64,000 nucleotides of DNA from Octopus vulgaris (taxonomy: Eukaryota). How positions within the stretch are numbered: the stretch's first letter is position 1; every line of letters begins with the position of its first letter. The notes under the pieces are model-generated. The model saw nothing but the letters and a program-made list of their open reading frames with translations, did no database searches and was not told the DNA's origin. The position numbers and the translations under genes were made by a program. Below, piece by piece: positions 28,478 through 61,075 of this stretch. The stretch is taken from NCBI GenBank assembly GCA_951406725.2, contig OX597831.1, forward strand, positions 51,584,001-51,648,000. The letters run 5' to 3'.

Positions 28478-30545
28478 GCGGTCATGCTGGGGCACCATTT
28501 GAGGAATTTTAGTCGAACTAATCGATCACGGTCTCTTTCGCTGAACGTAAACAACACTGGTCGTAATCGGTGGTGGGAGATAAACATAGATACACAGACA
28601 GTTAGTCAGACAGACACACGACGGGTTTCTTTCAGTTTCCGTCTACCAAATCCACGAGGCTTTGGACAGCTCGAGGCTGAAGTAGAAGACACTCACCCAA
28701 GGTGTCACGCAGTGTGACTGGACCCGGAACCATGTGGTAGCGAAGCAAACTTCTTAACAGCCACGCCTGCGCTTATATATATACATACATACATTATATA
28801 TATATATATATATATATATATATATGTGTGTGTGTGTGTATACTTTTTATCTTATATTAAACTGTTAATACTTTTTGATAGTTATATATATTTATTAAAA
28901 AGAAAATTCTTAAATAAATTAAAAAAAAAAAAAAAAAGTGGTAAGTAGCTTGTTTACCAACCACATGGTTCCGGGTTCAGTCCCACTGCGTGGCACCTTG
29001 GGCAAGTGTCTTCTACTATAGCCTCGGGCCGACCAAAGCCTTGTGAGTGGATTTGGTAGACGGAAACTGAAAGAAGCCCGTCGTATATATATATATATAT
29101 ATATATATATATATATGCGTGTGTGTGTCTGTGTTTGTCCCCCTAGCATTGCTTGACAACCGATGCTGGTGTGTTTATGTCCCCGTTACTTAGCGGTTCG
29201 GCAAAAGAGGCCGATAGAATAAGTACTGGGCTTACAAAAGAATAAGTACCGGGGTCGAGTTGCTCGATTAAAGGTGGTGCTCCAGCATGGCCGCAGTCAA
29301 ATGACTGAAACAAGTAAAAGAGAAAGATATATAAATATAAAAATTTATAAAAATAAATTAATAATTTTTAACTTTAACTTTAAATATTTTTATTTCTATG
29401 TTTTGGTTTATGTTTTTCACTGTTTGATTTGCCTAATAGTGATTTTATCTCTAATTTAATATATATATATATATATATATATATATATATATATTCTAGC
29501 AAAAACTGTCCGATGAACGGCAACGGGAAACTCGGAGTAACAGGTTTTGTTGAATTTTCTGCTGCTTTAAATAAAGTATATATATATATATATATATACA
29601 TATATATATATATATATATATATATATTCCTTTATTCTTTTACTTGTTTCAGTCATTTGACTGCGGCCATGCTGAAGCACCGCCCTTAGTCGAACTAATC
29701 GATCCCAATACTTATTTTCTTTTTTAAACCTTGTACTTATTCTTTCGTAATCTTTTGCCGTATCGCTAGGTCATGGAGACTTAAACACACCAGCACTAGT
29801 TGTCAAGCGGTGGTGTTGGGACACACATATACACTCACACGTATATAAATACATATATTTTCTTTTTTTTTTTACTTGTTTCAGTCATTTTGACTGCGGC
29901 CATGCTGGAGCACCGCCTTTAATCGAGCAACTCGACCCCGGGACTTATTCTTTGTAAGCCCAGTACTTATTCTATCGATCCCTTTTGCCGAACCGCTAAG
30001 TGACGGGGACATAAACACACCAATCAAGCAATGCTAGGGGGACAAACACAGACACACAAACATACACGCACATACACATATATACGACGGGCTTCTTTCA
30101 GTTTCCGTCTACAAAATCCACTCACAAGGCTTCGGTCGGCCCGAGGCTATAGTAGAAGACACTTGCCCAAGGTGCCACGCTGTGGGACTGAACCCGGAAC
30201 CATGTGGTTGGTAAACAAGCTACTTATCACACAACCACTCCTACGCCTATATATATTTCTTTACTATCCACTAGGGGCTAAACACAGAGGGGACAGGCAA
30301 AGGGATTAAGTCGATTACATCGACCCCAGTGCGTAACTGGTACTTAATTTATCGACCCCGAAAAGATGAAAGGCAAAGTCGACCTCGGCGGAATTTGAAC
30401 TCGGAACGTATTGAGGCGCAGGAGTGGCTGTGTAGTAACCACACGGTTCCGAGTTCAGTCCCAGTGTGGCACCTTGGGCATGTGTCTCCTATAGCCTCGG
30501 GCTGACCAAAAGCCTTGTAATTGAAGCTGAAAGAAGCGCGTCGTA
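28478..30545. mobile_element. Cluster of SINE family A and B copies in alternating orientation
   Basis: A(-) 28478-28775, A(+) 28938-29325, A(-) 29635-29830 and 29872-30250, B(-) 30255-30410, A(+) 30414-30545. Confidence 0.85.
29500..29549 (+). ncRNA. Minimal type I hammerhead motif (CCGAUGA core)
   Basis: CAAAAACTGT-CCGATGA-aCG gcaa CGg-GAAA-CTCGGAG-TA-ACAGGTTTTG; 9/10-bp stem I; inside (TA)n. Confidence 0.7.
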
Positions 30546-30735
30546 TATCTATCTATCTATATATCTATCTATCTATCTATCTATCTATCTATCTATCTAT
30601 CTATCTATCTATCTATCTATGTACGTGTGTGTGTGTGTGTTGGTTTTCCATGTTAACAAAGTTAGAGGGTTCGACTGAATCTGATTACTCGGAGGACCGC
30701 ATCATACTTCAGTGTCTGTTTTGAATGGTTACTGC

Positions 30736-31471
30736 GGATCTTTTCCTTTTGAACGGCACTTTTCAACACAATTTCTTGTTAACTAAACACTTTTAAACTT
30801 CGTATACTGGTAGAATGTGTCAAAATAAAACATTTTTTTCTCTTGGCTTTCTTGAGAAAATTGTAATTTGTAAGTTTAACGTAGTTTAATTTTTCGAATT
30901 TTAACCAATCCTATGCCCTCTATTTAGCTAAAATCATTTGCTGCGTCTAAAACCGAGACAACATCCTGTAACTAACCCTAACTCTAACCCTAACCCTAAC
31001 CCTAAATTTTAGCCTTTCGTTTTTTTTTTCTTAATTGTTAAATTAATTTAATTGTTACGCGTGTGTCTAAAATTATTCGTTTTGTTTTTGTTTTCGTTTT
31101 AGCCTTTCGTTTTTTTTTTCTTAATTGTTAAATTAAAATCATTTTCCATTGCTTTCGTTTTTTCTTTTCTTAATTGTTATCCTTAAATTAATTTAACAAT
31201 TAAGAAAAAAAAACGAAAGGCTAAAATTTAGGGTTAGTGACAGGATGTTGTCTGTTTTAGACGCAGCAAATGATTTTAGCCAAATAGAGGGTATAGGATT
31301 GGTTAAAATTCGAAAAATTAAACTACGTTAAACAAACAAATTACAATTTTCTCAACAAAACCAAGAGAAAAAAATGTTTTATTTTGACACATTCTACCAG
31401 TATACGAAGTTTAAAAGTGTTTATTTAACTAGAAATTGTGTTTAAAAGTGCCGTTCAAAAGGAAAAGATCC
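30736..31471. mobile_element. Foldback/MITE-like DNA element with long TIRs, 8-bp TSD and internal telomeric repeats
   Basis: GGATCTTTTCCTTTTGAACGGCAC... / ...GTGCCGTTCAAAAGGAAAAGATCC; arms over 230 bp; TSD GTTACTGC on both sides; (CCCTAA)n at ~30973-31005. Confidence 0.9.
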
Positions 31472-60130: not shown

Positions 60131-60350
60131 CCCTTTCGTTACCAACCCAGCTGAAACCGGCCCTGTCTCTGAGTACAAATGTCTTGTTTTCAAAAGTTCT
60201 GAATTAAAATCTTCCACCAAACCTTAGTCACAATTTATGTTCTTAACACTAGCTTAATAATAACTAAGTTATTTTACTAAATTCTTTGTTATATTTGAAA
60301 TAATTGAAAGAAACACAGAGCATCTCAAAATAAATACAGTAATGAAAGGG
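60131..60350. mobile_element. piggyBac-like MITE
   Basis: TTAA-CCCTTTCGTTAC...GTAATGAAAGGG-TTAA. Confidence 0.7.
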
Positions 60351-61032
60351 TTAAGTGAAGGTCTAATGCTTCCTGTATTCACTCTGCTTAGCAAATATCC
60401 CTAATGATCTCAGAGCCCTCTTGCTTTAACCCTAAATTATTTCACTGTTGGACTCCATCTTATCCTGCTCTGCTGAAGGTAGACAAAACCTTGAGTTGAC
60501 TTAAGTTGGGGTAATCCCTTCTTGTTTTTATTTAACAGGCGCAGGCATGGCTGTGTGGTAAGAAGCTTGCTTCCCAACCACATGGTATTGATAGAAATAT
60601 TTGTTTCTTTACTACCCACAAGGGGCTAAACACAGAGGGGACAAACAAACGGATTAAGTCAATTATATCGACTCCAGTGCATAACAGGTACTTAATTTAT
60701 CGGCCCCGAAAGAATGAAGGGGAAAGTCGACCTCGGCGGAATTTGAACTCAGAAAGTAACGGCAGACGAAATACAGCTACGCATTTCGCCCGGCGTGCTG
60801 TTTCTGCCAGCTCACCGCCCTTTTTAATATTAATATTTCTAAGTCTCTCTAAAGGAGACTACGGCAGCGGTACTGGATATTAACAGTTATCGCCAAGCTA
60901 ATATAGGACGAATGCTGCCGTTGATTAGCTCCAAGAGGCCATTGCCTCTAGCTAGCTATGTGACACACGAACCTGTGTTCATTATAACCTTTGAACAGGA
61001 GAGGTCAGCCACTTACCCTTCCTGGTCAGGAT

Positions 61033-61075
61033 TCTGTAGACTAGTTTCAGGGTATTTGCCCTTTATCAATGCAGA
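61033..61075 (-). ncRNA. Minimal hammerhead motif, U3-A8 variant
   Basis: minus: TCTGCA-TTGATAA-AGGG caaata CCCT-GAAA-CTAG-TC-TACAGA. Confidence 0.7.

Follow-up and report, generated by a model that had tools for sequence, protein, structure and literature searches.

Complementary nucleotide swaps at core positions 3 and 8 among minimal hammerhead motifs in dispersed repeat families of Octopus vulgaris

Results

Six hammerhead motifs with complementary nucleotides at positions 3 and 8

We analyzed a stretch of 64,000 nucleotides from the 2.8-Gb genome of Octopus vulgaris (contig OX597831.1), hereafter called the window and numbered 1 to 64,000, in which an earlier note had placed six minimal hammerhead ribozyme motifs. 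The combination of nucleotides at core positions 3 and 8 of these motifs, which form a base-pair in the active fold, is a trait of whole repeat families and not a product of decay. We consider it probable, with good confidence, that each of the six motifs lies in the end of a different Penelope-like or retrozyme-like family and that selection on the catalytic fold keeps the 3-8 pair complementary.

All six cores, with their shared layout, are found where and on the strands that the earlier note had placed them, and positions 3 and 8 are Watson–Crick complementary in every one, as it had observed (C-G three times, U-A twice, and G-C once). The motifs, named here by the first nucleotide of the core, and one additional relic are as follows.

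29502..29547, plus strand: minimal type I hammerhead motif; core CCGAUGA at 29510-29516 (C3-G8, U4C); 8-bp stem I; A17 at 29539
39985..40044, plus strand: hammerhead motif; core CUGACGA at 39989-39995 (C3-G8); C17 at 40040; old decaying family
42954..43007, minus strand: hammerhead motif; core GUGAACA at 42999-42993 (G3-C8); U17 at 42962; 8-bp stem I
53467..53520, plus strand: hammerhead motif; core CUGAAGA at 53473-53479 (C3-G8); A17 at 53514
53839..53874, minus strand: hammerhead motif; core UUGAAAA at 53871-53865 (U3-A8); palindrome ACCGGU; A17 at 53842
61032..61076, minus strand: hammerhead motif; core UUGAUAA at 61069-61063 (U3-A8); palindrome ACUAGU; C17 at 61039
44253..44323, plus strand: decayed relic of a seventh hammerhead, absent from the earlier note; core CUGAAGA near 44261; another C3-G8 family

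The six conform to the minimal type I core (N3-U4-G5-A6-N7-N8-A9, G12-A13-A14-A15.1, and U16.1-H17) with a closed stem I, the exceptions being U4C at 29510 and nucleotides other than C3 and G8 at 42999, 53871, and 61069. Helix III is palindromic in all six, with duplex energies of -4.8 to -9.7 kcal/mol in five; that of 42999 (AAUAUU) is nearly without stability at -0.2 kcal/mol. The 42999 motif also carries an extra G and has a stem II that begins with G10.1-C11.1; its cleavage, if it occurs at all, would fall after U17. Stem II of the 29510 copy consists of 2 bp followed by an A.G mismatch, and with this short mismatched stem and U4C the copy is predicted to be weak as a ribozyme. The relic at 44253..44323 is 76% identical over 71 nt to locus L131, and its family is represented in both L043 and L131.

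A strict descriptor in which positions 3 and 8 were free and no extra nucleotide was permitted after A9 recovers three of the six motifs (53473, 53871, and 61069), compared with a mean of 0.16 and a maximum of two in 100 dinucleotide shuffles. Only 3 of the 16 chance matches in these shuffles are complementary at 3-8, and for the window motifs taken by themselves the permutation probability of six complementary pairs in six is 0.017. The six motifs are not six independent swaps, as three of them are canonical. Rfam returned no hammerhead among 120 matches to the window at E<=5, and no match at the gathering score in five loci. Because Rfam also misses the canonical C3-G8 motifs, its threshold cannot separate variants from canonical minimal forms. 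Minimum-energy folds do not display the hammerhead junction for most of the motifs.

The 3-8 state is fixed by family

Searches of the genome DNA revealed that all six motifs are members of separate, dispersed, multi-copy families. First-look candidates numbered 1328 for 61069, 1011 for 42999, 764 for 53871, 119 for 29510, 695 for 53473, and 1101 for 39989. For each family, 40 candidates were scored and 20 to 25 loci were fetched. The tallies of the 3-8 state comprise all core-spanning matches in the fetched loci, were obtained with queries that contain the core, and include the window copy and overlapping loci.

The pair is C-G in 30 of 30 copies of the 53473 family and in 45 of 47 copies of the 29510 family, where most copies have C4 and 35 of the 47 read CCGAYGA. 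It is U-A in 19/21 copies of the 61069 family and in 29/30 matches of the 53871 family, and G-C in 30/30 copies of the 42999 family, again with a core-containing query. We also examined the contrary prospect raised by the earlier note, namely that the family consensuses would be canonical CUGANGA and that the other nucleotides had arisen independently and unpaired. This is not what the families exhibit, since U3-A8 and G3-C8 are the commonest states in theirs. The 39989 family, which is old (median identity 88%), is C-G in 19 of 35 copies and something else in the remaining 16. The fact that its single old copies freely lose the pair suggests that inserted copies are neutral, and the unit of evidence is therefore the family and not the copy. 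Thus, the earlier note's expectation that random decay should not preserve 3-8 pairing holds at the level of families and fails for single old copies.

The 42999 family was additionally sampled with queries that lack the core, either the tail alone or a peptide-like translation of the tail, with the arms of one insertion counted separately. Among 53 core-spanning matches, G3 is present in all 53, C8 in 49, and the exact sequence GUGAACA in 44. When contigs from four sequencing runs with four organism labels were compared, no variant at or above 5% occurs among the rows listed at the seven positions of the G3-C8 core, and CpG sites of stem II are listed as variable. Contigs of this family are present in one run guessed to be RNA, which is not proof of transcription. 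At L278:1380-1600, the contigs of this run (X12) carry 11 A>G and 7 T>C sites. The majority of these sites are infrequent in the remaining three runs, and their pattern resembles A-to-I editing of RNA from inverted repeats on the two strands.

A candidate C3.A8 family (L090) was rejected: it is one decayed member of an older family in which U3-A8 is the most frequent core. One C3-G8 copy, located ~610 nt behind endonuclease sequence in L149, has G17 where its relatives have A17, probably through decay.

The motifs are located in the ends of mobile elements

The window motifs reside in the following elements, in which PLE denotes Penelope-like element.

29495..29576, plus strand: short element of 82 bp with a (TA)n run on either side; inverted pairs frequent among insertions of the family
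39972..40081, plus strand: old, 5'-truncated PLE 3' end; endonuclease C-terminal remnants ~500 nt upstream in L138 and L144
42814..43071, minus strand: non-autonomous PLE-type element of ~210 nt; direct arm from 43024 to 42814 with long tail, short inverted arm to 43071; in (TA)n
52444..53703, plus strand: 5'-truncated PLE 3' region with an internal 291-bp duplication
53787..53990, minus strand: young, 5'-truncated, Neptune-type PLE 3' end; endonuclease end upstream in L047
60826..61089, minus strand: part of a retrozyme-like unit of ~361 nt; partial head-to-tail tandems

The earlier note had proposed that this genome carries several Penelope or retrozyme families with non-canonical cores, and this proposal is borne out both by the family-typical U3-A8 and G3-C8 states and by the further families described below. 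A search for linked PLE open reading frames (ORFs), which it had recommended, was productive in part: endonuclease sequence accompanies the 53473, 53871, and 39989 families, and none was found for 29510, 42999, and 61069. In the 53473 family, a GIY-YIG domain is located directly upstream on the same strand in L118 and L098 (PF01541, E=5.9e-05), and L047 of the 53871 family is 87% identical over 436 nt to the GIY-YIG locus L147. The remnants near 39989 relatives in L138 and L144 were recognized by motif, and we take them to be Nematis-like.

Inverted partial copies stand beside the motif in 18/25 loci of the 42999 family, 19/25 of 29510, 10/25 of 53473, 10/25 of 39989, and 2/20 of 61069. The insertions thus have the anatomy typical of PLEs, in which one arm is inverted and 5'-truncated and a single end carries the tail; the tail rule was counted for the 42999 family only. 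The 61069 family has a period of 361 nt, with two copies 361 nt apart in L013 and six partial tandems among 20 loci, and in this respect has the character of a non-LTR (long terminal repeat) retrozyme, that is, a non-coding unit of 170 to 400 nt with a type I hammerhead in tandem.

An abundant G3-C8 family

A peptide-like tail query gave 15,374 first-look candidates for the 42999 family, and among 150 matches listed all 150 were identical. Its copies have two discrete 3' ends, at ~+126 and ~+187 from the core, and exactly one long end is present in 46 of the 47 inverted pairs listed; in the 47th, a palindrome within the tail matches itself. The 5' start is fixed ~25 nt before the core, and what lies upstream is either the inverted arm or unrelated flank, with the loose ends agreeing over only 44 to 47% in contigs.

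No autonomous partner was found in the 1.5-kb flanks or among the 150 scored of the 15,374 candidates, and the six longest frames (103 to 155 aa) run into TA repeats or unrelated flank. A weak reverse transcriptase (RT) match in L234 was considered as a partner and rejected as unrelated, being situated past a short end. The tail of the window copy holds a putative ATG frame of ~30 codons (42816-42905, minus strand) that ends with the element.

We propose that this short non-autonomous element would be mobilized by a Neptune protein. It may also descend from the Neptune-linked second G3-C8 family described below: the two share a GUCA/UGAC stem I and the core, and no downstream homology was found. 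One locus, L314 (G000:C1:163548974), has a single G3-C8 motif with stem II arms like those of 42999 and a different loop and helix III, and is possibly a link to the ancestor of the family.

Additional families include A3-U8 and a second G3-C8 core

A GIY-YIG search of the genome (6136 candidates, 150 scored), together with scans of flanks, uncovered additional families. One carries an A3-U8 pair in the core AUGAAUA, with stem II GC-GAUU-GC, palindrome ACCGGU, and C17. Its motif is located ~280 nt behind an RT-GIY-YIG ORF in L166 and L202, and 430 to 440 nt from the end of the shorter matches in L199 and L203. When the query started after the core, 38 of 41 matches kept the core and three were cut at inversion junctions; this core-free sample has A3 in 37/38 and U8 in 38/38. 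One base-pair of its stem I varies among G-C (15), A.C (15), A-U (7), and other (1).

A young, two-ORF U3-A8 family has intact 781-aa RT-endonuclease frames and U17, and an older subfamily has A17. In L281-L283 of the young family, an upstream ORF of at least 468 aa overlaps the 781-aa frame, with a T-run at the overlap that is a possible frameshift site; the family has many intact genomic copies.

A second G3-C8 family came from a pattern search in which its row recurred; the overall number of matches (1812, versus 1753 for the control) exhibits no excess. Homology unites 8 of the 12 fetched loci, which have ACCGGU and A17 and a stem I that reaches 10 bp, and the motif is ~200 nt behind endonuclease sequence in L307, L311, L313, and L316. 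These loci were selected by the G3-C8 pattern itself; of two copies that were not, that in L173 is G3-C8 and the inverted arm in L311 is G3.U8. The link to RT plus GIY-YIG was thus also encountered for the A3-U8, the second G3-C8, and the 781-aa U3-A8 families. Additional U3-A8 families (L161/L167 and L257-L275) and C3-G8 families were found as well.

Two further core changes recur. In L161 and L167, which represent a Neptune-type U3-A8 family with the motif ~730 to 900 nt behind the endonuclease, GCAA replaces GAAA (A13C) in an otherwise intact motif, possibly a family-level second core change that accompanies the loss of G8. U4C (CCGANGA) is common in three unrelated C3-G8 families, namely that of window motif 29510, that of L236/L240/L243/L247/L252, and that of L005/L067/L077/L162; among them is a subfamily with long open frames, whose older relatives L242, L149, and L255 have U4.

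A census drawn from the flanks of searched loci, which is not a random sample of the genome, gave 118 motif matches in 780,522 bases, compared with 0 to 2 in each of six shuffled sets. Outside seven marker families, 36 of the 37 matches listed are complementary at 3-8, and the exception is an inversion junction. In total, the motifs represent ~18 families: 10 with C-G (three of these from a single locus or a duplication), 5 with U-A, 2 with G-C, and 1 with A-U; the number with a fixed mismatch is 0. Permuting position 8 gives probabilities of 1.2e-6 over 17 families and 1.2e-3 over 8 collapsed lineages, figures that precede the second G-C family and in which kin are not independent.

The four pairs on the endonuclease tree

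Trees were built from the natural DNA of the endonuclease region, with 23 rows and then with 21 after removal of two long branches (L250 and L253). Both omit L261 (endonuclease on the other strand), L257 (long branch), L243, L237, L246, and L251. The C-G, U-A, A-U, and G-C states each occupy one side of a branch, which amounts to three changes, the minimum, compared with a mean of 9.7 when states are shuffled. The three non-canonical groups fall together, apart from the C3-G8 group (100/100). Support for joining A-U with G-C is 82/85 with 23 rows and 74/80 with 21, and the alternatives have p-AU values of 0.09 (G-C with C-G) and 0.23 (A-U with U-A). The decayed motif of L146, the next outgroup, reads U3 and A8, which would favor C-G to U-A as the first step. 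At least three double changes would have occurred in the Neptune lineage, with the 61069 family perhaps representing a fourth.

A CX2-5CxxC linker before GIY-YIG is evident in the translations. The trees contained no named reference proteins, and the assignment to Neptune reflects motif resemblance.

Discussion

How the 3-8 pair may be maintained

The fixed 3-8 pair of a family likely stays Watson–Crick through selection on active master elements to keep the catalytic fold. Following published work on PLEs, the RNA of such an element would be transcribed from a pseudo-LTR. A lone hammerhead would be nearly silent, so that uncut RNA would be the usual template and whole motifs would be copied into DNA. 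Cutting would be conditional, requiring that two motifs dimerize by way of the palindromic helix III, that the protein of the element binds, or both, and would trim the precursor RNA. Swaps at 3-8 would arise by rare double changes in master lineages and be fixed only when complementary, and single inserted copies would then decay neutrally. A more far-reaching version holds that one Neptune lineage ran through all four pairs, that each cuts in vivo, that the element needs the cut, and that the G3-C8 motif, present in thousands of copies, ranks with the most numerous ribozyme motifs in this genome and yet escapes standard CUGANGA searches. We regard this version as tentative, somewhat more doubtful than probable.

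Several observations weigh against selection on cleavage. Independent swaps are few (three or four), and support values do not settle their branching order. Features expected to slow cleavage are present, including U4C in three C3-G8 families and GCAA in L161/L167. Helix III of the 42999 family is nearly unstable, and its predicted fold extends stem I by G3.U17; U3-A17 is possible in 53871, and A3-U16.1 mispairing appears in the predicted fold of the A3-U8 family. Of five chance matches in shuffled AT-rich DNA, three are A3-U8, and a looser scan gave four low-scoring singletons that are not complementary. An RT or endonuclease ORF was not found in the fetched loci of the 29510, 42999, and 61069 families, and the sequencing runs were compared as contigs. 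In the published work drawn on here, PLE insertion in vitro did not require the hammerhead and read ends were absent from the cut site (PMC11167929), and Naiad PLEs thrive without a hammerhead (PMC8557442).

Some of these same points could instead mean that the motifs are true hammerhead descendants of which the non-canonical ones no longer cut, the pair being kept as a signal for PLE protein binding or folding, or through a founder effect. Cleavage is dispensable for insertion in vitro as reported for one PLE (PMC11167929), genomic copies include the uncut motif, slowing features (U4C, GCAA, weak helix III) are fixed in whole families, and only three or four swaps are independent. However, positions 3 and 8 make a tertiary contact in the fold that is catalytically active (PMC3088659), and its maintenance through transversions points at that fold. 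Moreover, G5, A6, A9, G12, A14, and A15.1-U16.1 are fixed in the swapped families, and none of the ~18 families encountered combines high copy number with a fixed mismatch. We judge this reading to be unlikely. It is less likely again that the motifs are active passengers that ride on PLEs or excise small circular retrozyme RNAs, with selection acting on the ribozyme replicon and not on the host element. This has been raised as a possibility for PLE hammerheads (PMC8557442), the 361-nt partial tandems of 61069 resemble non-LTR retrozymes (PMC7229834), and no ORF accompanies the largest family encountered (42999) in the loci examined. Yet the 3-8 state follows the endonuclease tree with zero extra changes, as expected for vertical inheritance with the element, and the 42999 5' start is fixed upstream of the motif with no head-to-tail repeat in the aligned loci, unlike a circle-derived unit.

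For 42999 in particular, the G3-C8 motif could be a chance look-alike inside an element resembling a miniature inverted-repeat transposable element (MITE), a reading prompted by the inverted ends of the window copy, the silence of Rfam, and the lack of an ORF among the loci. We rejected the MITE reading, since the inverted arm varies in length and the tail is present only where the other arm lacks one, which is PLE and not MITE behavior. Also, G10.1-C11.1, the extra nucleotide, and the palindromic helix III fit the PLE consensus (PMC4209133), and the second G3-C8 family has a 10-bp stem I and lies ~200 nt behind a Neptune GIY-YIG domain. A chance origin of this motif is highly improbable.

The G3-C8 variant has been described as hindered by C17, as 'data not shown' in the source (PMC3884650), and both G3-C8 families here lack C17 (they have U17 and A17), in weak agreement. 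Positions 17 and 3 could be seen as covarying, in that C17 accompanies A3 and is never found with G3. We make no such claim, because many published C3-G8 PLE motifs have U17, and A17 is found alongside U3.

Other features of the window

On the minus strand, 2099-10260 holds exons of a DnaJ (Hsp40) gene (weak matches to PF00226 and PF01556), and frames resembling exons in 38372-47482 may encode a secreted protein of the von Willebrand A type (PF00092, E=0.0074 for 38375-38680). If the latter frames form one gene, the 42999 motif would be in sense within an intron and the 39989 motif antisense. A lone, diverged 5S rRNA copy at 26321-26439 (plus strand, 87.9 bits) is probably a pseudogene. Broken pieces at 19207-19798 (minus), 47962-48943 (plus), and 54301-54633 (minus) resemble, judging by their motifs, reverse transcriptases of the RTE/LINE kind and the end of a mariner-type transposase.

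Relation to known hammerheads and elements

The C3-G8 pair of the active fold is known to covary naturally to U3-A8 (PMC3088659), a state present in ~1,300 Schistosoma mansoni motifs (PMC4209133). Minimal PLE hammerheads are reported to be silent as monomers and weak as dimers (PMC4209133). In one PLE hammerhead, C3G and G8C singly abolish cutting and the double mutant partly restores it, and cutting needs the PLE protein (PMC11167929). The PLE tail is explained by two start sites of reverse transcription (PMC11167929; PMC8557442).

The octopus motifs are like the PLE hammerheads that Cervera and de la Pena 2014 described from pseudo-LTRs (PMC4209133) in being type I with a short palindromic helix III, in occurring as solo copies, as inverted pairs, and in several families per genome, in their link to an RT-GIY-YIG ORF, and in the U3-A8 variant. 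The motifs described there are C3-G8, U3-A8, and one U3.G8, with no G3-C8 or A3-U8 listed in the portions drawn on here; in the octopus both are fixed, and four pairs occur on one Neptune lineage. The green anole PAc Poseidon element (Frangieh et al. 2024, PMC11167929) shares the two-start tail and AT-rich targets, and its hammerhead lies in the pseudo-LTR; there G3-C8 is a laboratory mutant, whereas here it is natural and the elements are Neptune- or Nematis-like or non-autonomous. The core variants of Perreault et al. 2011 (PMC3088659) likewise include U3-A8 covariation and a very short stem II, and their U4C is tolerated in a viroid, but the 3-8 changes given there are only C-G to U-A, in mostly prokaryotic, pseudoknotted motifs.

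The 61069 family is similar to animal non-LTR retrozymes in its ~361-nt non-coding unit, type I hammerhead, and partial tandem (PMC7229834; bioRxiv 10.64898/2026.07.22.740005), and differs from those described there in its U3-A8 core and minimal helix I. Resemblance to Neptune PLEs (Craig et al. 2021, PMC8557442) extends to the C-terminal GIY-YIG, the preceding Cys linker, an optional ORF1, a hammerhead near the 3' end, (TA)n targets, the tail, and the inverted 5'-truncated arm, the clade call being made by motif resemblance.

For G3-C8 and A3-U8, we found only laboratory variants in the published literature, and the alignments and supplements of other published studies may contain natural ones. 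Lunse et al. 2017 reportedly recorded about 150,000 PLE-associated hammerhead variants. PLE hammerheads and their dimers are already known, as are U3-A8 and U4C as natural variants; what is added here is the family-level fixation of G3-C8 and A3-U8 in an animal, their link to an endonuclease, and the presence of all four pairs on one element tree.

Implications

The benefit of the hammerhead to PLEs is debated, given its poor cutting in vitro, its dispensability for insertion in one reconstituted system, and the suggestion that the motifs are passengers. Compensatory swaps that recur at a tertiary pair of the active fold, and that can be followed on the tree of the element itself, are natural evidence in favor of selection on catalysis. 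The four core types, present in related contexts and in one case accompanied by intact 781-aa ORFs, are ready natural constructs. As 8 of the ~18 families are not C3-G8, searches based on CUGANGA and on Rfam undercount genomic hammerheads, and PLE families reported to 'lack' a hammerhead merit re-examination with positions 3 and 8 freed.

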